DNA of 64,000 bases. It comes from Balanoglossus misakiensis. Its lineage: Eukaryota; Animalia; Hemichordata. How positions within the stretch are numbered: position 1 is the first letter of the stretch; every line of letters starts with the position of its first letter. Below, in pieces: positions 41,701-64,000 of this stretch. The position numbers were made by a program, and so were the translations under genes. The notes under the pieces were generated by a model. It was given only the letters and a program-made list of their open reading frames with translations. It made no database searches and was not told where the DNA came from. The stretch is taken from NCBI GenBank assembly GCA_040954595.2, contig CM082594.2:8945612-9009611 (forward strand), in the 5' to 3' direction.

Positions 41701-44700
41701 GATGTAAACCCTGCTGTTGCAGTGACAGTTTCATCCAGGGATGTTGTAGATTCTACTCCTTCTGTTGCTGTTAACACATCTGCTGTTGATGGCTGCTCAG
41801 TTGATGTAAACCCTGCTGTTGAAGTGACAGTTTCATCCAGGGATGTTGTAGATTCTACTCCTTCTGTTGATGTCAACACACCTGCTGTTGATTGCTGTTC
41901 AGTTGATGTAAACAAATCTGCTGTTGATGGCTGCTCAGTTGATGTAAACCCTGCTGTTGCAGTGACAGTTTCATCCAGGGATGTTGTAGATTCTACTCCT
42001 TCTGTTGCTGTTAACACATCTGCTGTTGACGGCTGCTCAGTTGATGTAAACCCTGCTGTTGCAGTGACAGTTTCATCCAGGGATGTTGTAGATTCTACTC
42101 CTTCTGTTGCTGTTAACACATCTGCTGTTGATGGCTGCTCAGTTGATGTAAACCCTGCTGTTGAAGTGACAGTTTCATCCAGGGATGTTGTAGATTCTAC
42201 TCCTTCTGTTGATGTAAACACATCTGCTGTTGACGGCTGTTCAGTTGGTGTAAACACATCTGCTGTTGATGGCTGTTCAGGTGATGTAAACACATCTGAT
42301 GTTGATGGCTGCTCAGTTGATGTAAACACATCTGCTGTTGATGGCTGCTCAGAAGATGTAAACCTTGCTGTTGCAGTGACAGTTTCATCCTTGGATGTTG
42401 TTGATTCTACTCCTTCTGTTGATGTCAACACACCTGCAGTTGATGGCTGCTCAGAAGATGTAAACCTTGCAGTTGCAGTGACAGTTTCATCCAGGGATGT
42501 TGTTGATTCTACTCCTTCTGTTGATGTCAACACATCTGCTGTTGATTGCTGTTCAGTTGATGTAAAAACCTCTGCTGTTGACGGTTGCTCAGTTGATGTA
42601 AACCTTGCTGTTGCAGTGACAGTTTCATCCAGGGATGTTGTAGATTCTACTCCTTCTGTTGATGTTAACACACCTGCTGTTGATGGCTGCTCAGTTGATG
42701 TAAACCTTGCTGTTGCAGTGACAGTTTCATCCAGGGATGTTGTAGATTCTACTCCTTCTGTTGCTGTTAACACATCTGCTGTTGATGGCTGCTCAGTTGA
42801 TGTAAACCTTGCTGTTGCAGTGACAGTTTCATCCTGGGATGTTGTTGATTCCACTCCTTCTGTTGATGTTAACACACCTGCTGTTGATTGCTGCTCAGTT
42901 GATGTAAACCTTGCTGTTGCAGTGACAGTTTCATCCTGGGATGTTGTTGATTCCACTCCTTCTGTTGATGTTAACACACCTGCTGTTGATGGCTGCTCAG
43001 CTGATGTAAACCTTGCTGTTGCAGTGACAGTTTCATCCTGGGATGTTGTTGATTGTACTCCTTCTGTTGATGTTAACACACCTGCTGTTGATTGCTGCTC
43101 AGTTGATGTAAACCTTGCTGTTGCAGTGACAGTTTCATCCTGGGATGTTGTTGATTCCACTCCTTCTGTTGATGTTAACACACCTGCTGTTGATGGCTGC
43201 TCAGCTGATGTAAACCTTGCTGTTGCAGTGACAGTTTCATCCTTGGATGTTGTTGATTCTACTCCTTCTGTTGATGTAAACACACCTGCTGTTGATTGCT
43301 GTTCAGCTGATGTAAATCTTGCTGTTGCAGTGACAGTTTCTTCCACAGATGTTGTTGATACATGTAGCATGGTAGTTTCCATTGCTGGTGTGCTACTTTT
43401 TAACGACACTTGTTCATCTGTTACTGTATCTGTAGTTAGTGTCTTGATTCCTGTTATCACTGTAGATTCCAAACTTTCATACTCTGCAGTTGTGATAGCT
43501 TGTGTTTCAGTAATTTTGTACTCCATATTTGTAGTCGGTATTGCACTTATTGTACTGGCATGAGTATCAGTTTGAGTTGAAGTATCACTTGCACTATTGT
43601 TGTGAAAGTGTGTAGAAAGGATTTCAGATGTCACAATGGCATCTCCTGTGCTCACTTCTGGCACTACCGACCTCTCCTGTGTGGTATGACTCATTTGATC
43701 ACTTTCTGTAGTATTATAGAATGCACTTGTAGACGTCGCATAGTGCGATGTCTTGTCCACCCTGGACAGTTCTGTTGAAGTTGGTGCATCCGTTGTGCGA
43801 AATAAATCTTCAGTTGTGTGTTCTGTAGTTTTGTTTTTCAACGTTGACAATATTTCTGATGTTTCTGCTCTGTCTGTGGTTGTATGCCAATCCACAGTCT
43901 GTGACGATGAAGTAACTGTGTTTGTTGGGTTTTCTGTAGTCTCCATATTGGTTGTTGTTTCTTCTGTAGTCTGATCATCTTCTGTGTAATTTTCTGTTGT
44001 GCTATCAAGCATCTCAGTTGTTGATTCGTCTGTAGTGGAGCTTGCCTCGGTTGTTGTTTGTACGGTGTGCAAAAAGGTCGTCGGGATTGTGCTTTGTTCA
44101 GTTCTGACAGAATATATGTACGTTGTTTCAACAAAATCATCCTCTATTGTCTCTTCTGTTGCAGTGTAAAAGTTAACAGTACTGGAGTGTTCGGTTGATT
44201 GTGAAATTTTTTCAGTAGTTTGAAAGTAGATAGTTGTTTTATCTTTAGAGTCAGCTGTGCTTTCATTTACAGCAGTGACATATTGAGTATTATTGGGTAG
44301 AAACCCCACCAAAAATAGTAAAATTATAGTGCACAAACTGTCACTCCACCTCCAGTGGTGACTTTTTCTAAAGAAAAATATGACTATTGATAAATATAAT
44401 GAGTTATTAAGCACTGGGCAATAAGAAACATTTTCCAAAATTGTAAATGACGATGTCTTGCCTCTTTGTGAGTATTTCAAGCGCTTGGAGTCGTACAAAG
44501 GCCTCTTTACATCCTGCTGTGAACTGTGGCTTTGTCCTCCCTTGTGGAATATTATACTGTAAATATCTGAAAAAAGAAACCAATAAAACCAAGATTTTTA
44601 TTTTTGAACAGCGCTCGTACAAGTAAAAAAACCCATAGAGGTTCGGTATCACTTAAACATTAAAGTGAAAGATGTCTATGGCATTTGGTCACAAACAAGC

Positions 44701-47700
44701 AATTACATGCAATTAAAGCCAAACCTTCTTATTGAGATTCCTGTGACAGATGAACATCTTAAGTTGTTCTTGACACTTTGCTTAAAAGAGTAAGGCTTTG
44801 TGTGTGCAATATATCTAAAACAAATAATGTTACAGTAGAAGGACAGTGTAATACAATACTGTCAAACATTACAGCGGCATAAAAACACTTTGACCAGTTT
44901 TGGCAACACCCACTGTCTCAACAATGTATTGTCAGAGAAATGTGGCTATGTGGCTAGAAGATCACAGAAAAGATAACTAGACATTCTTTTTCAGTTGAAA
45001 TGGACATGTTCCAGATATCACACTGTATATTCCAGATATAACAATATATAACAACTGTTGCTCTGGTGTCTATTTTGCACAGCGCGCAGGTTAAGTCACG
45101 CCCCACGACAAATACTTGGGCATGAATTCTGTCAAAATACCACTGGGGGCGCTATTTTAACCCCCCCCCCCCCCTTTAAAATCGATGGTTTGCACGAAAC
45201 CTTAACACTCATCACTGCACACTGACCTTGCTTTGATTGGTGTGAGTCAATGGAGCTTGGGTCGCCGAATGTTATCAAATAGGAATATTGAGTTAAACGT
45301 TACCACTGTTGCCTCTAGATTCCTGGGCCACATATGCGGTTGCTGGGAGGGGCCCATCGGTTGGCAACGCGCGTACGTCCACGTGCACATTGAAATCGAC
45401 TTGCACTTGTGTCGGTATGTCCTGACTGTCCATCGAGAAGTATTCCGTATTCAGAGATGACAGCCTCACCGAGTTTGTTTCTAACATAACTCATCGTTCA
45501 TCAATGTTATCTTCTCTACGAATGAGAACGAAGATCACCAAAGCGATGTTCAGACGAGCATGACGACGGAGACATTTGTTGTCCAGCGGTACAGCATGGA
45601 CTCGCAAACTGTTGTTGAGGTTGCAATGTACCTTACCAACATCTTGAAAGATGCTCCTTGACATTGTCATCCATGTCTACCAGACCGGACCATCCGAAAA
45701 AGACCTGTGTACCTTTGTTCATATATCATATTTTCAATGTCTGTCCAGGCCAAAGGTTACCTCGGGCCACCGCCATTGTTCTGACACCCTAAGTCAATAA
45801 CTATAAATCTGTATGAGACTACCCAATATAAGTAAAAGGCACTCCTAATCATATGGCCCTATAGATCTTCATCACTGACTTTATGAACAGACAATCTTCG
45901 TAGAAACTTACATATAATGCCATGATGGTTTTTAGAAAGTTTTAAAATGGAGAATGTGTTCCTAAGGTTCCTACTCTGAATATAATATTTTTTGTACACG
46001 CCGATATCCACCAAAAGCCAACAGTGTTTTTGAACTATCTGTACTGTCTCCACATTCCCTTTCTCAAACATAGGTGTGGACGTGTACCGAATTCTTTCGC
46101 CGCCAACAGATATTACCTATTATTACGCAGGTGTTACTTCTACATTTCGAAACATTGTTGAGCTCTGTCGTTTATTTTCCCTGTGTACACCTTTGCTTTG
46201 ATAATTACGTCACGAAAGGGAGTGTTGCACAAATAGTGTTGGTTTGGAAACTACCACTTTGGGCACTGTGTGGATTAACTTTGATCGTTGGCAGAATTTT
46301 TCAAATTCCTTTGAGTGTAGAACCATGGACAGTCAACTCAGTTGCCAAGATCACATAATCCGTGTACCATTTGAAATAGTGAATTCGAAATGGCATAACC
46401 TGACAGAATAGGACCTACAACGAAATTTTCCCATTTTTTTCAGTTTCGACTTCGTTCTCCTGAATTCGCTGATTTTCTTTTATTCTTGTTTTTTTTAAAA
46501 ACTCAACTGTAACGTTGATTGTAGGCAAAATACACTTCCAATAAAGTTCTCACTTTTTCCTCTTCCCATTTTAAAGAAAATCCAATCATTCCAAATAATG
46601 TACATTCTACAGGTGAAATGACGCCATTTTGTTTATTTAGCCTTTGGGTCTCTGCCGCCGGAAGCATCAACAATCGGCAGATATGTCCAGAACAAAGAGA
46701 AATGCAACCGACACTGTAACAAATGTAAGTAGAAGAAGTCATTCGACTTTGGTGTTATCCCACCCTGAAAGTAAATAACTGGCGGGAGTTGTTCTTTTGG
46801 ACAATACTTAGTGAATACAAGATACATGTATATACTTGCTACAGGCTGAGTTTTGCATCACCACGACTTTTAAGCGGAATACCAGCAGGCAATACCAATA
46901 CAACTTGAAATGAGTACATTTGTATTTATAAAACTTGAACCAATATTATAATTGACACACCATCTGTCACGTATTTAAAGATGAGGCATATAGCACTGTT
47001 GACAATTACACTGTACTAGTTCAGGTGCGTCCCTTCTCTGAATTCAAGTTGTAACGTTTGGCTCCTGGCAAAACGGAGCAGCAATGGGCCTAGGTGGATG
47101 AGAGTGGGTGGGTGGGTAAGGGGGTTTCGATTACCACTGTGCAACGGGACCACAACTACATACAGATCACCTTGTTTTCTTTTGTACAGCCATTGTCAAA
47201 TTTAAGATGGTGGATAAGAAAGCCGGACACCTTCTTATCTTGTAGCTCTGAAGTTCCCTTTCTTTATGCAAAGCGCGGTGGACTTAACAAACACAAACGA
47301 ACATAATTACTCCATTAATACGTATACAAATTGAGAGAAATCCTGTTTTCTCTCGTCAGAGGCGGTGGCGACATAGAACGTGGTGCCACAGACGTATTTT
47401 ATAAATATGCGTCGACGGCTGTCCAATTTAGAGCTAGTTGCCCCTAATGCATGCACAACTTGCAGCGCCAGCTTAGAAAGTGACACAACCAGTCTCAGGT
47501 CATGATTCAGGGTTTAACTTTTACACATACACCTTCGTGCGAGGATGGGAGAACAGAAAACAATCTTCTGCTTTTAGACCCCCCCCCCTCCCACACACAC
47601 ATACACGCATGCCTTTACCTTTCATGTTGGTCTAACCCACACAACGTACTTTTGGAATACAATTTGCGCTTTCATACCTGTGTTCACTGACGTAAGACTT

Positions 47701-48376
47701 TCATGCACTTTAAGTATAATCTTCCAAGAGCTACTTAGTCAACTCATTCCACACGTTAGATGGTTATTGAACTTGAAGTGGATGATTGTTTAGCAGAAGT
47801 GGTGACAACCAGAATTCTCCAAATTCAAGCCTCTAGTACAATACATGTAAGGGATTACCACTTTCATGGCTTTTTACTAGACCGCGTGGACTATATATTT
47901 GGAAGGGCAATCAATATTGTGTTGGTACGTATGTCCGAATGGGAAAAGAATCAGATTTTACAAACGGCAACAGAAAATGTTCTTCTACTTTCCACAATTA
48001 GACAAAAAATGGATCGTATTCACATAGAAGATCATGTACTAGCGAATACGTGTCGACACGTATTATGGGCGTATACCAGATTCTCCTAAGTGGCTTTCTA
48101 TCAGCCTTATTGCCACAATGAATTTATCATTAATTATGTTTACACTTTCCACGGGCAAACAGTGCAAATGTCAACAGAATCAGGATTTCTCCATTATGCC
48201 TTGGTCTAATACAACCCGACCTACAAAAGACCATCTTTGCAATTTGCTAGTCTTTGTTTCTAGGTTTTGAGAGGCCGACAGGACTTACGCAATACATGTA
48301 AAAAAATGAAGAAACCAGAACTTAAAAGCACGAGTATCACCAGTTGTACATTCTGCAGAGTGTCCCATGGGCGCAT
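175..48376 (-). CDS. MUC4-like giant mucin (signal peptide - PTS repeats - EGF x10 - NIDO - AMOP - VWD - EGF/cbEGF array); multi-exon, 3' end beyond the left window edge
   Basis: Consecutive GT-AG exons on the minus strand encode DI(D/N)EC...C...C cbEGF units, NIDO ([36 protein letters not shown]), AMOP (CLNWY...CPC, QRCCY, YFCC), and VWD ([21 protein letters not shown]). NIDO-AMOP-VWD after a PTS region is the MUC4 architecture. The exon-1 assignment is less certain than the rest. Confidence 0.9.
5204..5523. repeat. Intronic (CATA)n microsatellite, ~320 bp, with a few TATA variants and one CCCCGGGG interruption
   Basis: Directly visible; it generates the spurious MYVC/HTYI ORFs. Confidence 0.98.
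6072..8308 (-). CDS. Mucin gene: VWD domain (GDPH autocleavage motif) plus following Cys-containing and beta-rich exons
   Basis: [26 protein letters not shown] (8103-8308), [16 protein letters not shown] and FGQT (7350-7656), [10 protein letters not shown] (6859-7117), NYPP...DVEG (6519-6671), GTFVWTP...CQCQNNGTC (6072-6252). GD/PH is the known autoproteolytic site of MUC4-type VWD domains. Confidence 0.85.
8509..10487 (-). CDS. Mucin gene: NIDO and AMOP domain exons
   Basis: Translations [10 protein letters not shown]...[24 protein letters not shown]...[34 protein letters not shown]...[16 protein letters not shown]...[18 protein letters not shown]...CEMYEEKRP. Confidence 0.85.
10608..13206 (-). 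CDS. Mucin gene: ten single-EGF/cbEGF exons between the PTS and NIDO regions
   Basis: Exons near 13102-13206, 12834-12956, 12569-12688, 12261-12383, 11961-12071, 11693-11803, 11468-11578, 11122-11263, 10881-10994 and 10608-10730, each with six-Cys EGF spacing and phase-1 junctions (boundaries approximate). Confidence 0.85.
13370..44566 (-). CDS. Giant PTS/mucin exon (up to 31,197 bp, ~10,400 codons, phase 1-1)
   Basis: Frame is open from the acceptor at 44566 to the donor G|GTAAGA at 13370/13369 and includes track ORF 13323..44498. The first ~300 nt may contain small introns, so the true exon start could be as low as ~44255. Confidence 0.85.
13975..43345 (-). repeat. Coding tandem-repeat array built from a 36-nt module (e.g. 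[12 protein letters not shown]) and a 66-nt module ([22 protein letters not shown]), giving mainly 102-, 138- and 174-nt units
   Basis: Measured periods: 102 nt (15121 to 15223) and 174 nt (21601 to 21775). All length variation is in frame. Confidence 0.97.
48289..48376 (-). CDS. Putative first coding exon of the mucin, signal-peptide-like [29 protein letters not shown]
   Basis: ATG at 48376, 29 codons with a hydrophobic core, then a strong phase-1 donor C|GTAAGT (intron starts 48288). Phase 1 matches the acceptor TTTTTTCAG| at 44567/44566, which leads in frame into the giant ORF. Not in the ORF track. Confidence 0.55.
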
Positions 48377-49113
48377 CACTAAAGCTTGGTGTCGTATTGT
48401 ACACAGAAAAGCAACACGTAGTACACAAAGAGGAAAGAAATGCGGACCAGTTGACCGTCGACTTGGTGTTGGCCCATTCGCTGCAGTATGACCTCAGGCT
48501 GACATCGCAATGATAAATTTCGAAAACAGGATCACCCTCCACACAGTGTTCTCCCCAAAGCAATGGGAAACTCATTAGCAGAACAGTTATTTGAATTGTT
48601 ATGCAAAATAACCACTACTTTATCAGAGATTCCTGGGGGACGCTATACCTGTTAACCGAACAAGGGGATTAACTATGAACAAATTGGAGAGAGTCCATTT
48701 TCTGACTGCCTGCTGAATAACGGGTGACGACGTCAAAAGTTCATTGTCTGATAAAAACCATAATTTGCCAACATTCCCCAACCCTCCAACTCCCATAAAA
48801 TTTAACTGATTTATATTGAACTGACTTCAAGTCTCCTTCAGTTTCAAATAAAGCAAATTATGACCCAGTCAGGGTTTTAATTGAATATAGAAAACATTAA
48901 ATCTAACATGAGATTACATCATGCGTCAGTACAGGTGAATTTTCCTGCACACAGAGGTTCAAAGAAAAACACATTTCAGATTTTAAAAAATCAAATTTTC
49001 GATTTTGACTTGCATTTGGTTAATCGTCGGAATTGATTACACGCGGAACTGAACACGAATGATCATGACGCAATTACGGTATAAAGGCTGGTGCGATGCT
49101 CGCTGGCTTCAAA

Positions 49114-49220
49114 TCACGTGACCGTAAAAACAACGTCTTTTGTCAAGGGAGAAGACATTGGGCATTGCCGAACGCAGTTGAATAACCGAGATTATCCTTG
49201 TTTACAGTGAGGTCACGTGA
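49114..49220. promoter_or_regulatory. Pair of extended E-boxes (TCACGTGAC 49114-49122; GTCACGTGA 49212-49220) ~750-850 bp upstream of the putative mucin exon 1
   Basis: Motifs seen directly and match the USF/MiT-TFE GTCACGTGA consensus. Function is untested. Confidence 0.3.
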
Positions 49221-51010
49221 GTTATAATTTCGTTTGTTTATCGCAAACTTGAAGTGACCCACCAACCCACGGTAGCGTTCAACCACGTCCAGCAGATTCT
49301 CCATTCATTCAGAAGTCAGAGCGCGCGGGCGCTTAGTGAACTTTTAGAATAAAGGTTTTCATCCTGATTTTGCAGTCGTTATATTAAAAAGTGAGGCAAG
49401 ACACTAAGGCGAAGTCAGTCCAACCTTGTGTATGTATATTGTACAGTTGATTTACAGTGTTAAGTTGGCGTAGAAAACTTCAAAGTAATTAAAATTCAAT
49501 TTTACGCATAAATCATTTTTCGCGATAATGAACTGAAAGTGGTGATTTCTGCAAAACTGATTTGCTATGGCATTAAAGTGTGTTTTTAAAATAATATAGG
49601 ATGAGGAGAAATTGCAAACCATATGCTACCTATACAGTGCTCACCTGTTGCCGATCCCGACGTGTATCCCTGGGGTGTGGTCGTCAAATTTTCGAAAATC
49701 GTCGACATATCCGCGAATTGATCAGTGCGGATGAAATTACAGTGTCTCTGAGTATGTCCTTTCGGGTTAACCGAATAATTGTTTCTTTTTGTAGATATTT
49801 TTCCTACACTTGTAAACTTGGTACAGCTTGAGATGATCAGTGCAATAATCAAGGCCGTGCACACCGGAGCAAAGTAAATTATCTTTGCCATTCTGCCACA
49901 GAATGAATGAATTTTTTCCACGTGAGATGAGTTGACGCTACTAGGATTTCAAATTCGTTGTTTCGTATCCCGGCGATGGACCTGGATAAATTTGAGAGAT
50001 GAGCACTCCAGTTTTATACGCTCGAACCGAGACATTCTCCTCCAAGACGGGCGACCCCAAGTGAAAGTGAAGCGTCGAGCTCACTTATTTGAGTAGACTG
50101 GTGTTCTTTCTGGGTTACGTAAGGATATGCGTAACGAGGATAAACCCTGCGCCAAGTGGGTGTAGCTTTGCGCGAAAAAGTTACTCTGTGAGAAAGCCTG
50201 TGGGCCAATTGAAAGAAGCCTAACAAAGGTGTTCTCGCCGCGATAGGCTGAGACAATTAGCAGCATGGGTCTTGGATGAGTTTGGGTGTTGTCTGTATCG
50301 TCGCAGTTCTCTCGCCAATAAGCCGCACTATTTTCTTCTCGGCTGGATTCAAAGTTTCCTTTAGTTTTCGAACTTTGAAAACTTCTCTGAAAATTGCAAA
50401 GCGAAAAAATCGCTTCTGCCATTTCATATGAATGTCAAATATTCAGCGAAGTCATCTTCATCCAGCCATTTTGTAATTTGTGAAGTTCTCTATTAAAGGG
50501 ACACTTTGCCAATACATTTGCTCCATGGAACTAGGTGGTCTCGCTGTAACACGTGTAATTATAGGAGCTCATCCGGGGACTCATCCATAGGCGTATACCA
50601 AGAATGCATGGGATTACAACGTGTTTTCTTTGTTACTATGGGGGAATTACTTGGTGGAATAGACTTCGGATGCTAATCGGTGCATGGGATTCTGCGTGGT
50701 CCACGACAAGAGTATTATCACAAGAGTAAATACTGGAACGGCCATCATAGGCAGATCGATACGGTCAAGGGGAAGGTTTCGGGGGAGGGGGGGAGGCAAA
50801 CCCAGGCTTTGTGCCGACACTTATAGGGCTGGATACACGAAGAAGCAGTTCCGAATGCATACGAATTTTGCCTATTTGCTCCTTGTAACTGACACGTGTG
50901 CCATTATGCAAACAATTGTCTATATGCCAAAAACAATATGCTTCAGACATGAATGCAACAGAAGACAATAATATTTCCTAGGTATGCAGCTGAACACTAT
51001 GCAAAGTATG

Positions 51011-51016
51011 TTTATT
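51011..51016 (-). terminator. Polyadenylation signal AATAAA of EctC-like paralog A
   Basis: TTTATT on the + strand, ~130 nt past the stop codon. Confidence 0.55.
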
Positions 51017-51145
51017 TTCCAATACTACCATTATTAACATGACAATGCTGTATACGGATATAATACCATTCTTCTTTCATTTCTAAGACCTTGTGTTTTC
51101 TCTCAAGAAGGGGAGGGGGCGTTCATAGCCCTTTAACAGTCATGG

Positions 51146-51895
51146 TTATTCAGGAAGTTCATATGAGGAATATCCCTCACTCCATACATGTCTCTCCAAT
51201 CCTGTTATAGTCGGAGAGAAAACGCATATGCATAAACTAGTCTCTGCTGCCACAGCTTCGTGTTTATCGTGTTGGTCCATAATGTAAGCGGTTCCATTGA
51301 CATGAGATTCAACCGCTTTAGCGCCCTCATCCCATTCATACGTCACCTTCCCAGCGAAGTAGTAAGCGGACTCTAAGTGGTTCAGGTAGACCATTCTGGA
51401 GCTTGTTCCGCCCCTGACAAGGGTGTTTGTCAAGCTCACGGGGAACCCGTCTGATTTCAGCAGGAAACGCCGACTGTCCCCGGAGCCCCAGTCGACGCTT
51501 CTCTCGGTGCCGATGATTTCCGACAGGGACCGACAGACAACACGGTCTTCTTCTGGCTTGATATCTTTGCAGTATACCACATACACGCGAATGCGTGACT
51601 CCACCAATAACTTGGCTGAGATGCCAGAAGAAAACGCCATCATTTGATCCGCATCCACTTTGATCGACTGACCACCAGGAATCTGCACACTACCTGTGCC
51701 TGATATGCAGTAATACATGTGATTCAACTTTTCCACTTCCGACGATTTCAGGTTGACAGTTTCGCCAGCCTCGATGAAGACCTCATAGGCTGTATGATTC
51801 ATGTTGTCAGCCTCTGCTACCAATTCTTTACCCTTCAATTCTGTGTTTGGAAGGACAGTGGTGGCAGACACCTCTTCAGAATGACGCGTAATCAT
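51146..51895 (-). CDS. ectC-like: Ectoine synthase (EctC)-like tandem double-cupin protein, paralog A (249 aa), CDS intronless
   Basis: C-half RSLSEIIGTER.VDWG.G.SRRFLLKSDG...YLNHLESAYY...GTAYIMDQHDKH...CVFSPTITGLERH matches recalled EctC motifs (YxNHLE, GTxYxLDxHDxH, CVFNPPxTGxExH). N-half MITR...EAGE...YYCISGTGSV is a degenerate second copy. Start context GCCATG. Confidence 0.88.
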   Translation of the reverse strand: MITRHSEEVSATTVLPNTELKGKELVAEADNMNHTAYEVFIEAGETVNLKSSEVEKLNHMYYCISGTGSVQIPGGQSIKVDADQMMAFSSGISAKLLVESRIRVYVVYCKDIKPEEDRVVCRSLSEIIGTERSVDWGSGDSRRFLLKSDGFPVSLTNTLVRGGTSSRMVYLNHLESAYYFAGKVTYEWDEGAKAVESHVNGTAYIMDQHDKHEAVAAETSLCICVFSPTITGLERHVWSEGYSSYELPE

Positions 51896-51916
51896 GGCTA
51901 CTGGTCTTTCTGTAGT

Positions 51917-52900
51917 CTGTCAAATAATTAAAATGACTGAATCAAAAAACTAGTATATAGCCATCGCTCATTTTTTCTGGTCGTGTTTCCCGTGGCTAGT
52001 GCATGTTCATGCATGTAACAAACGAACTTATCTAAACGCATGAATGGTATACAATCCCCCTTTAAAGTTCATGGATTCGCCTGGTGCCTGGACCGTCCAG
52101 CAAGTCAGCAGAACCGCGTGTGCATTGTGTTTTCTTGGTGTGGCCCCATTAATTATAAATAAGTCACGCGAGCTACTTGGCCTACAGACTGACAGATAAG
52201 CATGCAGTCCAAAGACATCTGGTAAAATTAAGCAGTTAAAAGTGGCAGTTAACGTTCCTCGTACATTACGGAAACAGATTCAACCAATTAAAAATAGTTT
52301 GCGAACTAATCACCGATTCTTTCAAATAATTCTAATCGTGGACAAAGTGGGCGTGTCCCCAGCGCGGTAGGCGACTGGCAGCCATGGCCATACTTAACCT
52401 TTATAAGCCATCAGAACAAGTGAAACAACGGCTGTTATTAAGAGTTTTCGTGGTCGTCGTAGGTCCTTTGTGGCTCTATTGTGATGTCGTTTCATTTCAG
52501 TCCTGCCTTTTAGATCCATGGTCCTGCTAACACCACGCTCGCTCGTACCGAACCAAGTTTTATCCGGGCTATGAGCTGCGCTGATAACCTTCGGGCGGAT
52601 CGCGAAAATTACGGGCCGAAATCTACACAGGCCGAAACAACCAGTTTACCGAGGGTCCATGGTCAACTATGCGTCTCATTAAACAACCTACCTCCTGATC
52701 GGTATATTCCCAAATCCTCCTTATAAGCAATTCGCTCCGCGTAAGTACGCTGCCACAGACTATCAGATAGTTACGTCACTGACCTGGTTAACTGCCCTAA
52801 TCCTATTTGCCCAGGGACCTTGTTAGCATACTGTCAGTTGTCATTCAAAGTAGGTAGACTTAATTTTAGCCTCATTGTGAAGAGGAGAACCAAATTGTAC
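51917..52900 (-). promoter_or_regulatory. Paralog A: 5'-UTR intron (51917-52691), non-coding exon 1 and putative proximal promoter
   Basis: Acceptor TTATTTGACAG| 21 nt before the ATG; donor GAG|GTAGG at 52692/52691. Segment 52695-52895 aligns by eye with 54215-54435 of paralog B. Confidence 0.65.
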
Positions 52901-52990
52901 GTGATGTAACTTGCAAAAAATATATGATACAGGTACTGCGTGTGTGAATGAAATATTGAAGTAAAAGGCTTACTTATGATGCACTGTCAT

Positions 52991-52996
52991 TTTATT
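52991..52996 (-). terminator. Polyadenylation signal AATAAA of EctC-like paralog B
   Basis: TTTATT on the + strand, ~136 nt past the stop codon, an equivalent position to paralog A. Confidence 0.55.
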
Positions 52997-53131
52997 TTTA
53001 AGTTAACATCGTGGTAACATATTCACAAAATTTACAAGGCCAACAAGGACATGAAATGTCGGGGAGACACTTATTATGCCCTTTCGGTATCCAATGGTAT
53101 ATATGTCATCGTTTCATTTTCATGACCACTG

Positions 53132-53890
53132 TTATTCAGAGGGTCCAAAACCAGAATAGCCACCATGGAATTCGTGATTCTCAGAGCCAACCAAGACGGG
53201 GTGGAAGACGCAGAGACAATAACAGTCTTCTGAGGCCACCAATTGATGGTTATCATGTTGGTCCATGTTGTAGATTGTGCCCTGGTTTGGTCCAACACGA
53301 GATTCTACCACTTTAGCGCCCTCATCCCATTCATATTTAACTTTCCCGGCGATGTAGTAGACCGATTCCAAGTGATGCCTGTAGCCTAGCTTGGAACCAT
53401 GACCACCTTTGGCATAGGTGTTATTGAAGCTCACGGGGAACCCGTCTGACTTCACCAGGAAACGACGACTGTTTCCGCGACCCCAGTCGATGTCCCTTTC
53501 AGTGCCAATGATTTCTGACAGGGACCTACAGACAACACGGTCTTCTGCTGGCTTGACATCTTTGCAGTAAACCACATAAAGGCGAATGCGAGACTCTGCC
53601 AATAACTTGGCTGAGATGCCAGAAGAAAACGCCATCATTTGATCCGCATCCACTTTGAACGACTGACCAGCAGGAATCTTCACACTACCTGTGCCTGATA
53701 TGCAGTAATACATGTGATTCAACTTTTCCACTTCCGACGATTTAAGATTGACAGTTTCGCCAGCCTCGATGAAGACCTCATAGGCTGTATGATTCATGTT
53801 GTCAGCCTCTGCTACCAATTCTTTACCCTTCAATTCTGTGTTTGGAAGGACAGTCGTGGCAGACACCTCTTCAGAATGACGCGTAATCAT
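53132..53890 (-). CDS. ectC-like: Ectoine synthase (EctC)-like tandem double-cupin protein, paralog B (252 aa), CDS intronless
   Basis: Same architecture as paralog A: GTERDIDWGRGNSRRFLVKSDG...YRHHLESVYY...GTIYNMDQHDNH...CVFHPVLVGSENH. Confidence 0.88.
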   Translation of the reverse strand: MITRHSEEVSATTVLPNTELKGKELVAEADNMNHTAYEVFIEAGETVNLKSSEVEKLNHMYYCISGTGSVKIPAGQSFKVDADQMMAFSSGISAKLLAESRIRLYVVYCKDVKPAEDRVVCRSLSEIIGTERDIDWGRGNSRRFLVKSDGFPVSFNNTYAKGGHGSKLGYRHHLESVYYIAGKVKYEWDEGAKVVESRVGPNQGTIYNMDQHDNHQLVASEDCYCLCVFHPVLVGSENHEFHGGYSGFGPSE

Positions 53891-53915
53891 GGCTACTGGT
53901 CTTACGTACTGCAGT

Positions 53916-54440
53916 CTGTCAAATAATGAAATGTTAAAACATTATCAATATTGCTATTATTCTATTTTTTCCGGTCATTATAACCGTCCAATGTCAGGCG
54001 ATGTGCTGGAAATTTCGGTTAGTAGAGTGTGATTGATTACACGAGACTTGTATAGCCTTATCTCAAAGAGGCAGTAACCCCAGACGATTACAAATTTTAC
54101 CACCGAACTTGTTAGCCAAAATAGGCAATTTCAATGTCAGTATTGAACATTTTGCCATCCGTGAAACATACGTTGTATTTGAATCATAATGAATAACTTA
54201 TTACCTCTACTTAAATGATCGGTAAATTCCCAAATACTCCTGACAAGTAATTCGCTCCAGATATGTACGATGTGCTGTCTGGCCGTTTGTCACAGAAAAT
54301 GGCACAGCTCAATAGCAGTGCGACCTAACCTTTTTGCCCCGCAGGACCTTTGTAGCATGGTCACGTGCACGTTACTAGTCAGCTGTCACTCTAACCTAGG
54401 TAAACTTTAGCCTAGTTATGAAGTGGAGAAACAAACCGAG
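53916..54440 (-). promoter_or_regulatory. Paralog B: 5'-UTR intron (53916-54204), non-coding exon 1 and putative proximal promoter
   Basis: Identical acceptor TTATTTGACAG|; donor GAG|GTAAT at 54205/54204. Shared blocks with paralog A (+ strand): TGATCGGTAwATTCCCAAATmCTCC, AATTCGCTCC, GGACCTT, TTTAGCCT, TGAAGwGGAGAA. Confidence 0.65.
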
Positions 54441-55792
54441 CGTGCAGAGGTAAACTGCAAAATCTATACAATGCAGTTTATACGCCCAGAAGAGCACATT
54501 GGTAAACAGGTAATGAATTTGTGGCTGGTATGTTATGGTACATGGTGCGCGCATCAGGTGCAAGTGGGGCTGGTATAGTGAAGTTTGCTCTCCCCAATCA
54601 CAACCTAGAACAATCTGACTCCGTTATTGCCACAAGGTGACCCCTGGCCAAAGATAAGGTGACCTCTGTCTGAAGGAAATGGCCGTCCTCTAAGTACTGT
54701 GGACAATATCGACAAGGTGGGTGCCAGTTTCAAGCTGACACCTGTCTGTTTCAGTGTTTGTTTTCTGCAAAAAAATGGCAGGCGTCTGTCTGAAACTGAC
54801 ACCGACCTTGTTGATTTCATCTATGGTATCTAAGCGACTGAAAGGCTGCTAAGTAATGAATTCTTTTATTCCTGTCATGTCTAAGAGACTAAAACTTTAT
54901 TTGATTGCAAATCCTTCTCTTTGAGAAGCAGTTTTTATATGGTACAAGACACTCACATGACTTGAGCAGAGTTCAAGAATATATATATAACCTTTATTGG
55001 TGCAATCATATCATTTATTCAATGCATGATACATAAATTCTGTAAAAAAAGTGTTGATAAAATTGCTTGAAAAGATAGCATTTGACCCAGCAGCCTCTAA
55101 GTACATAAACTATGTGAATAACCACCAGACATGTTCATCTTCTGATACTTGAAACCTTTCCATCCCCATTTCCTTAGTTTCAATTCTCATTATTATAAAA
55201 GTGAAGGGTATCAAAATAAACTTCCCACATCATGGTGCAGAATCATCTGTGAATTTTACAGCCACAGACTACTTCTATGTAAATAACTCACAGTAGATGG
55301 AGTTGTTTATATAAAGAAAAAAATTAGCACCTACCCAATCAAATATCTTTGTACATGTTAAAATAGCATTTCTGCTTGTGTAAAATTTTGAAATATGAAA
55401 ATAGAAACACAGATATTGTTGTTGTGTTACATTATCACCATATTATTGAATCCAACTATTTTTGTTTGTTAGTGTCAACTACCATAATCCCACATTAGTT
55501 GATTTGTACATTAGCTTATTAATCCGATAATCAATTTCTGTACTGGTTATGCTAATACCAGTCCACACAAATGCAAATTTCAAAAATGGCAGTAGAAATT
55601 GCATTAATGTGTTAAAAGATCAACCAGTTCACTCTAGAGTTACACATTCTATCACTGGCTTGTGTTGTCAATGAAAACATGATCTCGCCACTGACTACTG
55701 AACTCTATAGGTATCCCTAATTTCTTGTTAGAGCTGTACCATACCCAACTTCACTGGAAGACATTCAATGTGATTGTTGTTGTTAAGAGGAT

Positions 55793-56677
55793 TTAGGACT
55801 GGTTCTCTATGAACGATGTGTGTGCTTCATTGGGTAGTGTATTTTCATCAGTGTCAGGTAGGGTCACATCTGTAGCAATCTCTCCGGTCACTTCAACCAC
55901 ATCATAAGCGCAGAAGTCTTCCAGATCCAGTTTGGAACACAGCCAGCCGTAGAAGCCCTTCTCAAAGTCTTTGAAGTCTCTTTTCCAGGATGTGAAAAAC
56001 CAGGATATTTGGACAAACGCAGCGTACAACGCAATGCCTAATGTCAGTAGGACTATGGCTGGCGGGTAGAAAATGATGAGCACTGGACACAGCAGTATTC
56101 TGTACGCGATACCTTTGTCGTCGTAATAATGAACAAAAACACCGTACCATGTGATGGTTCCCAGGTAACCAGAAACGACAAAAGACGTGACGAAGGCAAC
56201 CGGAATGCACAGTAAACTAAAAAGGAAGACATGAATGCCCTTATCAAAGCCCCAGACACAATCATCCGGTGTGTCCTCGTGAGTCAGTGATTTCAGATTA
56301 TCTTCCGAAATAGTGACTTGGATATCTTGGATTTTCTTTCCGCGTCGAATCGTTCCCGTCAGCGTAATGCTTTTCCCACCGACAGATGACGTTGTAGTGT
56401 TGATGGTATCTCTACTCTGACTCAGTTCTTCAATAGTATCATCATGTCGGCTTACTGACGAATCGTTCAGAGTGTCGCGCCAATACTCCGATGAACCCTC
56501 CTTCACTTGATTATCTGCTGCTTGTTTCTCAAGTAAATGCACATCGCTTTCCTTTACGGTCTGTGCTTGTTCCTCTGCATTTCTTCTTTCTCTTTTCAGC
56601 TTTTCTTTTTTGATAATCTTCTCAGCTGGGCTTGGCCCATGTTCTCCCTGCTTGCTTTTATCAGGTGACTTTGGCAT
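55793..56677 (-). CDS. TMEM169: Transmembrane protein 169 (294 aa), single coding exon; 5'-UTR intron ~56715-57127
   Basis: Motifs ITLTGTIRRGKK, GTITWY, CPVLIIFYP, LYAAFVQISW, EKGFYGWLCSKLDLED match recalled TMEM169. First ATG (MPKSPDK) is at 56677; the track start at 56704 is a TTG. Acceptor TCTCAG| at 56715 and donor CAG|GTAAAA at 57127. Confidence 0.92.
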   Translation of the reverse strand: MPKSPDKSKQGEHGPSPAEKIIKKEKLKRERRNAEEQAQTVKESDVHLLEKQAADNQVKEGSSEYWRDTLNDSSVSRHDDTIEELSQSRDTINTTTSSVGGKSITLTGTIRRGKKIQDIQVTISEDNLKSLTHEDTPDDCVWGFDKGIHVFLFSLLCIPVAFVTSFVVSGYLGTITWYGVFVHYYDDKGIAYRILLCPVLIIFYPPAIVLLTLGIALYAAFVQISWFFTSWKRDFKDFEKGFYGWLCSKLDLEDFCAYDVVEVTGEIATDVTLPDTDENTLPNEAHTSFIENQS

Positions 56678-57127
56678 GATGATAATATATGCAGTGTCTT
56701 TCAAACTTTCTAACCTGAGAATACAAACATATTATTGGAGTGATGTCATAGTTCTTTGGCAGGAGGCAGAACCAAACCTATAACCCTGTTATGATCTTTC
56801 CATTAGACACTGCTTTCTGTGCCATGACAATGTGACCATGGAAGTACCTTTCAATGGCGTGGCCATGGATGATGACCGGCTACTTCCATTCAGGGTCACT
56901 CCACACCACACACACTGGACTGGTATCTGATTATGGATGTGTACTATAATCAGACTGTACATCCATGGTCTAAAGTAGACGACCCCAACATCATGCAAGT
57001 TCACAGCTGGGTTTGACATTCTAAATAAGATTGAGAAGACATCCCACAATCATATTGACATTGGTTAGGTTCATTGAGTTCATGTTTAACGCCCTGTTTT
57101 CAATAACAAATACTCTTTCACTTTTAC

Positions 57128-57551
57128 CTGTCAGCCGTCAGACGGGGAGATCGGATCAGACACCGTTCTCTGGCATAACTTCCTGTTTGTAAACTTGTTC
57201 TGTCGGAAACAGAAGCACCTTGAGGACAAAGACCAACTTCCTTAGGTGAGTGATGTCTTAGGAAAAGTTGCACAAAAATAAAGGAAAGTCACATTTGACC
57301 TACGTTGCGACATTTCCATTAAAAGAGGGTGTTGGATAAATATGATTGTGATGCGTCTAGTTTAACGCCATTGGATGATGCTAAAATAAATTCCTTGCAT
57401 AGTACAGTAAATAATAATACAATTTGCACATCAGTTTTGTTCAAACAATCGCCACAAATAGCGTCTAAATAAAAATTAACTTCCGACCACCCCTCGACAC
57501 TTTGGTTTGGTCCGGTTGGGGTCACATCCACATCCGGGTAACATAGGAATC
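57128..57551. promoter_or_regulatory. Putative bidirectional promoter between TMEM169 exon 1 and MLX
   Basis: Head-to-head first exons about 0.4 kb apart; ETS-like cores ACTTCCTG (~57178) and CATCCGGG (~57531). Confidence 0.55.
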
Positions 57552-59716
57552 ATGGCGGACGACGATGATAGCATTTGGAGAACTACCCAAGATCAACAAC
57601 AGGTAACTTTCGCGTAAATCGTTCGTACTTAAAGCATACCAGTGAATGTCATGGATCCCATAGAATTTGTGCTAGAGTTAAATGACTTTGCGCGAGATTT
57701 TTTAACGTTCGTAGAAGACTTTGACCTGGCACATGTATATGTAGTTCGTTGCCACATTGGTCTGATCGCACGTACGACACAACAATAACACAGCCCACCA
57801 ATGGAAACAATATTGAGCTGAAGGTCTTCTCATTATAACGACTTGTGCTCATGTCGTAACTAGTCGGTTACGTGTCCTGATAACATTCTCCATTTTCTTA
57901 CAGACTACAGGGTTTATTGTCGGCGGCGATGGCTTGGGCGACTCAAGTTTTGACAGTACGTAAAGAAAGAATAAGTTTGATATTTACATCATTCTATTTC
58001 CGGTCAAAATAATATCAAAAATTCTGATATAGACTCACTGTAGATTGTTATCAGGGTTTCTGAGATACTTGACCTGTGTCAAAAAATAATCTCAAGATAC
58101 ATTTGCATCTCGTGCAATAATGATTGATGTTCAATGACGTATACATGTACATTACAATTTACATCAAGTCAGCGATATTGACACCCCACAGTGTGTTTGT
58201 TCTGCATGCAAGCATTCCAGATTACAGGCTTTGCTTACTGTCAGAAATTTTGTCTGTGTGTATTCAGTTGACTTGATTAATGGAGAGATGAAAATCGAAG
58301 CAACCAGTCCGACTGCTGTGGGAAACCAAAATCAGACCAGGTTTAATCTGGGCAGAAATAGTACTAGTAGCAGTACATCATTGACTCAGAATGACAGTAA
58401 TGCATCCCTTATACTGACAGGTAAGGGTGTCTGTGGGCATGCTGATAAAAATGTAAACGGAAAGAAATACGCAATTCTTTAACGTCTAAGCAGGCAAGAC
58501 ATGTCTGTATGAAATTTGTACTGTGACCAGTCCATGTTTCTTCATAACCTGTTTTTCTGTCATCTGTTCAAACTGGTAACCATACTCTTTTCTTCTTTCA
58601 GATGATGACGATGATGACAATACAGCCAATGTGAAAATGTACAGGGATAAAAGGAGGAGTGCCCACACTGCAGCTGAGCAAAAGAGAAGGGATGCCATCA
58701 AGGTAATGGAGATAATAGTAGCGCTGTCTGCATTACATTGTTGTATGAAAATGCTGCTAACACAGTGCAGGCACGTTCATTGGGTCCTGCTGTCAGTGTC
58801 ACCATACTCTAAGCGTGTGAAAAATTGTGAGTACAGTGTATTATGTGTGAATATGGATGTTTTTTGTGTGATTTTATCAGAAAGGATATGAAGACCTGCA
58901 GAACATAGTACCAACATGTCAACAAACAGACGCAGTGGGATCACAGAAGCTAAGCAAAGCTGCCATCCTGCAGAGGTCAATTGATTACATCAAGTTTTTG
59001 GGTCAGCAGAAAAAGAAACAAGAAGATGAACTTAGCGCACTTAGGAAAGAAGTCATGGCACTGAAAATCATGAAAGCGTAAGTGTCCATCCGTTAACGGT
59101 CAAAGATCGAATGATGCAAGTGTTCATATGGTCACTCTCCACCCAATTTGACACTCGTCAAAGTGAGAATAATTTTTAATTTTTTCCTATTCAGGAATTA
59201 TGAACAGATTGTAAAGGCTCATCAAAACACACCGGCAAGTGGCAGGAATCAGATATCAGATGAAGTCAAATTTCAAGTGGTGAGTAGGATTTCGCATTTG
59301 TAGCATTACAGCTCCTCACAAAGAATATCATTGAATCTGTATGTGATGGTTATTACACATCCCATTGACATGTTGACATTCTTTTTTCCAGTTTAAATCC
59401 ATAATGGATGCTCAGTTCCAGTCCTTCAACGCATCAATATCAGTGGCCAGTTTCGCTGAACTGTCAGGATGCGTGTTCCATTGGTTGGAGGAATGCTGCA
59501 AACCACAGGTTGGTGTCCAAACTAAATTTCATATACATGTACATGCTATCAGCACATAGATGCACAGCTCACAATCCATGCCTGCACAGAAGTTTTCACA
59601 GTGATATCCACAGTATTTTACTCCAACACTTACATTTTTTCTATTTTTAGGCACTTCGGGAACTGGTCCTTGGTGTTCTGCGAGCCACAAACCATCAACT
59701 TTTCAGCAATGTGTGA
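57552..59716 (+). CDS. MLX: Max-like protein X, bHLH-Zip; 8 exons: 57552-57602, 57904-57955, 58268-58420, 58602-58702, 58881-59077, 59195-59279, 59392-59508, 59651-59716
   Basis: Basic region RRSAHTAAEQKRRDAIKKGYEDLQNIVPTC, HLH KLSKAAILQRSIDYIKFL, zipper LRKEVMALKIMKANYEQIVKAHQ, and C-terminal VKFQVF...FAELSGCVFHWLEECCKPQ. All junctions are GT-AG and in phase. Confidence 0.95.
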
Positions 59717-60874
59717 TCAACTGAGAGGAAAACCTTGTATATTTTATTATATTTAATTGTGAATACTTTGTGATGGTCATTGCCAAGTGATAGTGAACAT
59801 CAGTAAATCCCCTTCAGAGTCCAGTGGAAACCATGTTCAGTGAAAGTCATCATAAACCAACACCTGGTACCAATGTACTGGGAAAAACGGATCATGGTTT
59901 TTTCTGCACTTGATTATTCATTTTGTTTCTGAAATTCAAATGAATACGAATACACATGTACAGATTACACGGTTTAAATATTCCTTGTCTGGTTTACAAA
60001 GTTTTCATTTACTATCCAATCAAATTAATTCACCGAATGAAACGTTTTTATCCTGACTGCAAAAGTGCAGGAGTACAATTTGAAATATTTATTGCCAATT
60101 TTGGTTTGAGAAGCAGAGTACTGCTTTCTTACTAAGCCTTCCTGAAATGACGGTTGAAGATTTCCTGTAATCACAATTGTAACCGCACAATCACACTTAA
60201 AATGAAACTATTTGTTGAGGAAGCCATTTTATAGGTTTACCAATGGAATTGACCAGCTAAGCAACTTGGATTGCATGGCATGTCTGTTGTGTATTTTAAT
60301 TTTGTGCTATTATTTCTAAAGAATCATTGATAAATGATCATGTGTATTGGCAAGACTTCGATACAAAGATAAATATTTGCTGCTGCATGTCAGAAAGTTT
60401 GTTGTGATTATCTTGAGAATGGCTAAATGGGAAAAAAAAACTTTGGAATAAAATCAGAAGAGTAATCTTAACCAACCGTAACATGTCCTTTCTTTCATTA
60501 TTGTGACAAGAAAAATAAAATGTAAATATTTGATTTGATTAATATTAATTGCCATTGCTACGTGTATGTATGAAGGTGGTGTGTGTATTACCCAAATGCA
60601 TAGGTAAGTGTGCTATTATCATGATCAAACATATAATAATTCCCACGCCTTTTAAAAATATAAATATGTAAATAATCTTGTCCATATATGAGTAGCTTTG
60701 GATAAATGACCACTGTAAGACCTTGTGTATTGTCCTACACTGATCTGATATCTTGATAACTTTGCTTTCGTCAAGATATCCATACTCTATTATAATAGCA
60801 AATGGCACATCATGTTATTGTATGGAGTTGTTTGTAGATCTCATGTGACAGGCATATCCACAATATTGTTGACA

Positions 60875-63800: not shown

Positions 63801-64000
63801 TTTCTGTCCAAGGGCCCCGTGTTTTCCAACGCCTGGCAGTACCTGTTGATGGTGTAGACAAACTTGTCATACGCCAGCTGGTCACAGAGGAGCCGACGCT
63901 GTTCTTTACTTCTGTAGGTCATAGCAGGTGACCTGACCTTTACGTCAACTTCATTGTACACCTTCTCCAAAGAATCGGAAGACGCTGGGTTTTCACAACA
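60875..64000 (-). CDS. ARM-repeat / TIR / SAM-like protein, 5' end outside window; exons >64000-63632, 63369-63067, 62914-62617, 62431-62183, 61924-61567, 61384-61324, 60970-60875
   Basis: ARM repeats (ALSCLANNDKNKPKIIEAGTLPLLV, TIWNLAFD, AANGALWVL); TIR (HVMISYQW...GYRVWMDLEQMGGSTLQAMADAVE...SQKYKDSPNCRVEAEYA...VPLMVEERYKPSGWLG); SAM-like tail (WSESEVKNWM...ITGEDL...LRNALEHL*). Exon phases are consistent. Confidence 0.88.
62441..62470. repeat. Short intronic (GAT)n/(GGT)n microsatellite next to the TIR-exon acceptor
   Basis: Directly visible. Confidence 0.8.

Follow-up and report, generated by a model that had tools for sequence, protein, structure and literature searches.

How did two relatives of the ectoine synthase EctC come to lie in the genome of the acorn worm Balanoglossus misakiensis, and what might they do there? 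A 64-kb stretch of this genome (the window, the whole of the DNA analysed here) contains two intact, intronless open reading frames (ORFs) on the minus strand, genes A and B, which a preliminary description had read as a tandemly duplicated, bacterial-type EctC. From sequence comparison we conclude that A and B are a two-domain, orphan-type variant of the enzyme and not the plain bacterial type. The tree of their family traces its inheritance among animals back to the deuterostome ancestor or earlier, and a bacterial origin is likely.

The presence of such genes in animals is itself known. As the preliminary description had mentioned, ectC-related genes of Branchiostoma floridae and Saccoglossus kowalevskii were already in print in 2016 (PMC4987115), where the passages available from Harding et al. 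give only ectC, plus a degenerate ectD, for the two animals; PF06339 has also been recorded in two coral genera, Seriatopora and Favites (PMC11639872). The two-domain form, its range across animals and its bacterial sister clade apparently have not been described before: in the literature searched, which largely excluded subscription titles, we found no published account of them, of the bacterial gene cluster or of any assay. Statements about published work rest on parts of PMC4987115, PMC5924519, PMC5796728, PMC6344544, PMC4795551, PMC11639872, and PMC4729200.

Anatomy of a two-domain ectoine synthase relative

Both proteins match the EctC profile PF06339 (cut-off 27 bits) in two stretches each, gene A with 117 bits (E 8.7e-34) and gene B with 102.6 bits (E 2.4e-29), so the motif assignment of the preliminary description holds; homology to EctC is seen in both domains. 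They narrowly miss the cut-off of 128 bits set for the stricter NCBIfam model NF009806 (120 and 110.3 bits, respectively). Solved structures of EctC (EC 4.2.1.108; PDB 5ONM/5ONN/5ONO and 5BXX) are matched over residues 120–250 (E 1e-18). With ~250 residues the chains are twice the size of EctC and consist of two domains, unlike the single cupin of ~130 residues that forms homodimers; the preliminary description had touched on this only by speaking of 'each half'. An AlphaFold2 (AF2) model gives one compact bicupin (predicted local distance difference test score, pLDDT, 91.5; predicted template modelling score, pTM, 0.90). Its best whole-chain fold matches are bicupins (top Z 24.1, root-mean-square deviation 2.5, 216 residues aligned), namely (S)-ureidoglycine aminohydrolase, YlbA and DR1152 (Z 22.7–24.1). 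Sequence identity to these is only 11–14% and an Atlas search returned generic bicupins; the shared fold gives no function.

The catalytic features of EctC are found in the C-terminal domain. In EctC numbering, the C-domains of both proteins keep the iron triad Glu57, Tyr84 and His92 as well as Ser23, Arg25, Thr40, Tyr52, His55, Cys104, Phe106 and the ExH lid; Asn38 is kept in gene A and replaced by Thr in gene B, where the triad is E175/Y204/H212. With residue roles taken from section 14 of PMC6344544, nine of the ten catalytic-core residues listed there are present in A and eight in B, in addition to His55 and the Glu and His of the lid. The conspicuous departure is at Trp21, which is Gly in both genes, each with a Trp three residues earlier (G139 and W136 in gene A). 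Among 38 aligned two-domain proteins this Gly is universal, as are E175, H215, Y170, E237 and H239, and Arg25 is likewise invariant in the family. In the AF2 model, W136 lies across a predicted hairpin from the Trp21 position.

The N-terminal domain is a degenerate copy. At the positions of the iron ligands Glu57, Tyr84 and His92 the window proteins carry His, Met and Ala, and the domain lacks a C-terminal lid. Pairwise BLAST found no match between the N- and C-halves; their likeness was detected by profiles, the N-half family profile matching that of single-domain, Trp21-containing EctC with a probability of 99.4 in profile–profile (HH) comparison, the MIVR start strand included. EctC forms head-to-tail dimers, with strand 1 of each subunit paired to its partner's Tyr84 strand, according to the structural part of PMC6344544. 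Because of this pairing, the N-domain may serve as a built-in stand-in for the second subunit, itself devoid of catalytic activity.

The C-domain resembles orphan EctC-type proteins of bacteria. All 14 fetched bacterial loci with an adjacent ectB encode Trp21, whereas all 32 whose fetched flank (1.5–7 kb) lacks ectB encode W18/G21, although 12 of the 32 were fetched by a pattern containing that Trp and many are from related rhizobia. The W/F18-x-x-G21 hairpin motif of these orphans (treated in parts of PMC5924519 and PMC6344544) is shared by A and B, and the HH score of the family is 252.9 to the orphan type against 220.3 to Trp21 types. The orphans differ from A and B in being single-domain proteins of ~127 residues that fall outside the two-domain clade (support 99 and 100/99 in the two trees described below).

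Genes A and B are adjacent, and the proposed tandem duplication is supported. Their proteins are 94% identical over residues 1–117; over residues 118–248 identity is 65%, resembling that of each C-half to Ptychodera (62 and 65%). Synonymous divergence (dS) is 0.10 in the N-half vs 1.16 in the C-half, and nonsynonymous divergence (dN) 0.026 vs 0.26; the dS contrast is significant by Fisher's test on rounded synonymous counts (p 6e-12). With dN/dS of ~0.27 and ~0.23, the two halves fit purifying selection throughout. The pattern is also what would be expected of an old duplication if gene conversion acted on the N-terminal scaffold domain only, holding the N-halves alike while the catalytic halves diverged. 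Because the catalytic halves have diverged, A and B likely prefer different substrates.

Distribution and descent of the family

A first homologue search returned 21 matches, and all 15 that carried a name were deuterostomes: Ptychodera flava (64% identity), Glandiceps, Saccoglossus, Branchiostoma, Asterias, and Amphiura. A search of 50% clusters gave 272 proteins; among the 150 listed, 30 were looked up and five had a taxon, namely Acanthaster, Glandiceps, Mesorhizobium, the annelid Owenia and the cnidarian Nematostella. The animal entries from these nine genera, named 'L-ectoine synthase-like' by automatic annotation only, are full-length two-domain orthologues, with 43–64% identity in the deuterostomes. 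A search for shorter homologues returned none. The taxon range given here is under-sampled, as one profile search recovered three members of the two-domain clade among 22 matches. An ectoine synthase is said to be listed, perhaps, among the deuterostome novelties of Simakov et al. 2015; two supplementary spreadsheets contained no match.

In a tree of C-domains (127 columns, quick method, 141 of 170 rows after 29 near-copies or very divergent rows were dropped), 43 rows of two-domain proteins and fragments split from every single-domain locus with a Shimodaira–Hasegawa-like approximate likelihood ratio test (SH-aLRT) support of 99. A full-length tree was computed by a careful method under LG+G4 from 54 rows, leaving aside fragments and a long-branched third Glandiceps copy. 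It was rooted manually with a single operonic EctC, the outgroups fill less than half of the columns, and 22 of the 54 rows lack a taxon. In it, 19 named-animal and 15 unnamed rows form one clade (99/92), within which deuterostomes (100/99) and hemichordates (99/99) are recovered and the window pair joins Ptychodera (98/90), in keeping with an acorn worm as host. With this hand-set root, the sister of the animal clade is a bacterial two-domain clade (six bacterial and five unnamed rows, 99/89), and single-domain bacterial forms fall outside both.

Because relatives from hemichordates, lancelets, echinoderms, an annelid and Nematostella form one clade, this is an old animal family and not a recent capture. 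Its descent probably reaches back to the cnidarian–bilaterian ancestor. A single early transfer from a bacterium to animals is likely; such an entry, before or near the cnidarian–bilaterian split, would have been followed by inheritance, patchy loss and repeated duplication. Given the age of the phyla involved, purifying selection has probably acted on the family in animals for more than half a billion years. The horizontal acquisition put forward in the preliminary description thus stands as regards a likely bacterial origin, while descent within animals comes partway to the vertical descent that the description itself had set against it.

We considered whether the genes could be a recent, lineage-specific capture from a bacterium, or the product of several independent late transfers. 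The intronless coding sequences (CDSs), the patchy presence in animals and a grouping of Nematostella with Owenia that departs from the species tree could all be read in this way. The window proteins are nonetheless nested with full support among hemichordate, lancelet and echinoderm orthologues; their best matches are animal, at 43–64% identity, against 32% for the Mesorhizobium cluster representative, and their GC content at third codon positions (GC3) of 0.51–0.54 may be compared with 0.46 in the neighboring gene TMEM169. We regard late transfer as very improbable. In its strict form, a transfer later than the deuterostome ancestor, it is refuted, since three deuterostome phyla, one annelid and one cnidarian all have orthologues.

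Several further architectures surfaced in these searches. Six homologues (P0018–P0021, P0038, and P0039) end at a common point just past the Thr40 strand, as if a prokaryotic gene caller had cut them at a shared intron; a coding intron absent from the window genes may thus exist in some lineages. Double-domain EctC-like proteins of the P0054 and P0066 type form a separate clade in the C-domain tree, so the domain appears to have doubled more than once. Two other two-cupin EctC-like proteins (P0045 and P0057) carry hydrophobic N-terminal leaders resembling signal peptides; judged by their C-domains they fall among single-domain orphans, which suggests a further separate fusion. For the AT-rich P0067, viral contigs yielded no relative, and an origin from giant viruses was therefore unsupported.

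Bacterial relatives and candidate chemistry

The bacterial sister proteins, such as Mesorhizobium WP_210168689 (database name 'ectoine synthase'), have the same dead-N/active-C architecture and motif as the animal proteins. They differ from the window pair in having Phe at Tyr84 and Cys at Asn38, and in their gene cluster. Nine bacterial loci were compared, and by DNA identity they fall into four independent groups. At every one of them a diamine N-hydroxylase gene (PF13434) and then an NRPS-independent siderophore (NIS) synthetase gene (PF04183) come after the two-domain gene; eight add a 2-oxoglutarate (2OG)-Fe oxygenase, and the ninth contig ends early. The best solved matches of the N-hydroxylase are desferrioxamine-pathway and putrescine hydroxylases (DesB/AlcA-like), and those of the synthetase are DfoC, AlcC, and DesD. 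None of three whole sister-clade genomes contains an ectB above cut-off. Because the sister proteins sit in ectB-less genomes, in a non-ectoine cluster and with Phe at Tyr84, an ectoine-pathway role for the two-domain clade is improbable, and the suggestion that the animal makes its own osmolyte is weakened accordingly.

At 80% query cover, the bacterial two-domain form was found in none of 121 plasmid records and none of four phages; it occurs in none of 401 Rhizobiaceae genomes and in three of 401 genomes of the order. The run of EctC-like, N-hydroxylase, NIS synthetase and 2OG-Fe oxygenase genes (L079:9099-14413, also L048–L053, L080 and L081) is accompanied on the opposite strand by genes for a major facilitator superfamily (MFS) exporter and for FabH-like proteins. 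Among its scanned ORFs there is no DesC/AlcB-type acyltransferase, and the product is possibly an undescribed compound of hydroxamate type. The bacterial gene might encode a cupin that forms N–N bonds; none of the seven papers listed by a literature search on this idea mentions ectoine synthase.

This setting raises an alternative in which the clade has abandoned amidine chemistry and tailors, for example, an N-hydroxy- or N-acyl-polyamine derivative. The constancy of the cluster speaks for it, as do the variability of Tyr84 over the family and the varied clusters in which single-domain orphans occur. The window proteins, however, retain Tyr84, Ser23, Arg25, Thr40, Tyr52 and Phe106, and the window holds no animal partner enzymes of the bacterial cluster. 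The four bacterial groups, moreover, are 61–69% alike in the two-domain protein and may represent one inherited cluster. We consider this different chemistry somewhat unlikely.

Could A and B instead be true ectoine synthases, with ectoine as an animal osmolyte and host acetyltransferases and aminotransferases replacing EctA and EctB? Nine of the ten core residues in gene A point that way, and in the model W136 might substitute for Trp21 across the predicted hairpin. A Pseudomonas syringae orphan EctC complemented an ectC mutant, as recounted in the part of the review PMC5924519 drawn on here, and one single-domain W18/G21 orphan gene (L005:26-2261) adjoins a eutC fragment and the ectoine hydrolase gene doeA (TIGR02993, 634.7 bits vs a cut-off of 613); on both grounds the W18/G21 motif is compatible with ectoine chemistry. 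Mutating Trp21 to Ala, however, leaves EctC with 9.7% (PMC6344544) or 26% (PMC4795551) of its activity, according to the mutant data in those papers, and it is this residue, present at every ectB-linked locus, that the window genes replace with Gly. Both proteins also score below the NF009806 cut-off, the sister-clade genomes lack ectB, and a search of the window at E<=1 turned up nothing like EctA, EctB or EctD, in agreement with the preliminary description as to ectA and ectB. We judge a true ectoine synthase improbable.

Single-domain orphans have other neighbors as well. Related M24 hydrolases lie near orphan genes at six loci (L003, L004, L006, L008, L009, and L011), which hints at a recycling role for some orphans. 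At two loci (L001:3081-6168 and L015:5112-10122) orphan ectC-like genes stand beside genes for an AMP-binding enzyme and an acyl-CoA dehydrogenase, and L015 further carries carrier protein, transglutaminase-like and maleate-isomerase-like genes. In P0052 an arylmalonate-decarboxylase-like domain is fused to an EctC-like domain. The mycobacteriophages Gaia and Nebkiss (H34, KJ567043.1) encode an ectoine synthase-like/ParB fusion adjoining a 3'-phosphoadenosine-5'-phosphosulfate (PAPS) reductase-like gene.

The reading we prefer, one already raised as cyclic-amidine chemistry on dietary precursors, is that A and B depend on iron and catalyze the closure or opening of a cyclic amidine ring, their substrate being an N-acylated diamino acid or a similar amino-acid amide that probably derives from microbial food and not from a host ectoine pathway. 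We give this an even chance. By analogy with EctC, as far as its mechanism is set out in the part of PMC6344544 consulted, the C-domain iron would polarize the amide carbonyl, the amine would attack and water would be lost, or the reverse would take place. EctC is promiscuous and reversible on ring analogues, including glutamine/ADPC (5-amino-3,4-dihydro-2H-pyrrole-2-carboxylate) and homoectoine; it cyclizes glutamine and hydrolyzes ring-size analogues (PMC5924519, in the section drawn on here). The W18/G21 orphan next to doeA at L005 speaks for this reading too, since it shows that proteins with this motif can belong to ectoine-type metabolism. Because Arg25 is invariant, the substrate likely carries a carboxylate.

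Several observations weigh against cyclic-amidine chemistry in an anciently acquired family. The iron ligand Tyr84, fully conserved among 582 EctC-type proteins in the survey part of PMC6344544, is Tyr in only 13 of the 38 two-domain proteins and Phe in 16. In EctC, Tyr-to-Phe at this ligand leaves 29% of activity and 9% of iron (mutant data of PMC4795551); because the position varies although this exchange impairs EctC, the family may use other chemistry. The hydroxamate-type cluster of the bacterial sister has no obvious amidine product, and the diet as source of the substrate is pure conjecture. As for descent, Nematostella pairs with Owenia and does not fall outside all bilaterians, so that hidden paralogy or more than one acquisition is needed, and the echinoderms do not join the hemichordates, which is at odds with a simple single transfer. 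The 15 unnamed rows among the 34 of the animal clade could include protists or bacteria. Finally, in the C-half tree, which lacks resolution, an approximately unbiased (AU) test does not reject an A+B clade (p 0.11), which bears on the age of the duplication.

Genomic setting and significance

Genes A and B are genuine host genes that lie among animal genes (Table 1). We confirmed TMEM169, a spliced basic helix-loop-helix leucine zipper (bHLH-ZIP) gene and a mucin-like gene as neighbors, as first described; the bHLH gene is MLX-like by its sequence motifs. The GCC-ATG start contexts, AATAAA signals and intronless CDSs are likewise where they had been placed. The conserved intron proposed in each 5' untranslated region (UTR) fared less evenly: GT/AG borders are present and the blocks preceding the two donors (54216-54272 in A and 52696-52752 in B) are 82% identical over 57 nt, with looser similarity farther upstream, but no contig of the public run X3 reaches the junctions, so the introns stay predicted. 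No third copy was found by tblastn within the window.

The public runs X1, X2 and X3 come from one sample and one study, perhaps the window's own source, so they are not independent of it. X3 is filed as 'DNA?' and is read as RNA from splice joints alone: seven GT..AG joints in the bHLH gene occur in X3 and are absent from X1 and X2. X3 covers 11 of 30 bins of 44001-64000, and uncovered 5' exons are uninformative. Given these joints and zero-difference X3 contigs on both genes, A and B are probably transcribed.

Bacterial contamination or an assembly artefact such as a false duplication is the least credible explanation, and we attach almost no weight to it. What could be said for it is that codons 1-70 of A and B are identical in protein, where assembly collapse is possible, and that no one contig covers both genes. 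The C-halves, however, are only 65% identical and A and B have distinct zero-difference X3 contigs, one of which extends from N-half residues specific to gene B, beginning near codon 78, into the C-half of that gene. Overlapping X1 contigs link 53874, at the start of gene A, to 58439 in the bHLH gene at flat depth (38–63 in 29 of 30 bins, the exception being 98.8 where the two alike N-halves pile up), and other hemichordates also have orthologue pairs.

Table 1 Features of genes A and B and of their neighbors in the 64-kb window
Feature	Position	Strand	Description
Gene A CDS	53132..53890	-	252-residue two-domain EctC-like protein; X3 contigs 53027-53469 and 53663-53824, 0 differences
Gene A N-domain, residues 1-112	53555..53890	-	Degenerate EctC copy; HH profile comparison and AF2 model
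Gene A C-domain, residues 118-252	53135..53539	-	Iron triad E175/Y207/H215; S141, R143, N156, T158, Y170, F229; lid E237/H239
Gene A AATAAA, 3' of gene	52991..52996	-	Sequence; X3 contig extends to 53027
Gene A predicted 5'-UTR intron	53916..54204	-	GT..AG, 289 nt, sequence only; junction 54205^53915
Gene A predicted non-coding first exon and upstream region	54205..54480	-	Homologous to gene B counterpart
Gene B CDS	51146..51895	-	249-residue two-domain EctC-like protein; X3 contig 51071-51663, 0 differences
Gene B AATAAA, 3' of gene	51011..51016	-	Sequence; X3 contig extends to 51071
Gene B predicted 5'-UTR intron	51917..52691	-	GT..AG, 775 nt, sequence only; junction 52692^51916
Gene B predicted non-coding first exon and upstream region	52692..52960	-	Homologous to gene A counterpart
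TMEM169	55793..56677	-	PF15052, E 1.7e-49
Spliced bHLH-ZIP gene	57500..59800	+	7 GT..AG joints, X3 only; frame open across joints; PF00010
Mucin-like exon	13323-44597	-	One stop-free frame, 10,424 codons, ~31 kb

The mucin-like exon is built of tandem repeats (36/102/138/174 nt) rich in Thr, Ser and Glu, and NIDO, AMOP, VWD and EGF exons lie downstream of it. Such a layout is that of a membrane mucin like MUC4, here with an exon of unusual size. At the other end of the window (61566-64000, minus strand) lie exons of a gene with armadillo (ARM) repeats and a TIR_2 domain, arranged as in SARM-like or TIR immune proteins.

Databases label such proteins L-ectoine synthase, and reviews take animal ectC as a hint of ectoine synthesis in animals and ask for proof. 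The anatomy described here sets these proteins apart as a two-domain subfamily whose pocket is altered. Both window proteins are small, have intronless CDSs and are easy to express, and the cluster of the bacterial sister gene can be deleted; with such material, whether animals make ectoines and what orphan EctC proteins do can be tested directly. More tentatively, and with clearly less confidence than we place in the chemistry by itself, a single transfer before the cnidarian–bilaterian split may have given marine invertebrates a pseudo-dimeric enzyme that makes or recycles an unrecognized cyclic amidine of ectoine type, with paralogues diversifying only the catalytic domain. If so, cyclic-amidine metabolism, so far considered microbial, would also take place in anemones, worms, sea stars, acorn worms and lancelets.

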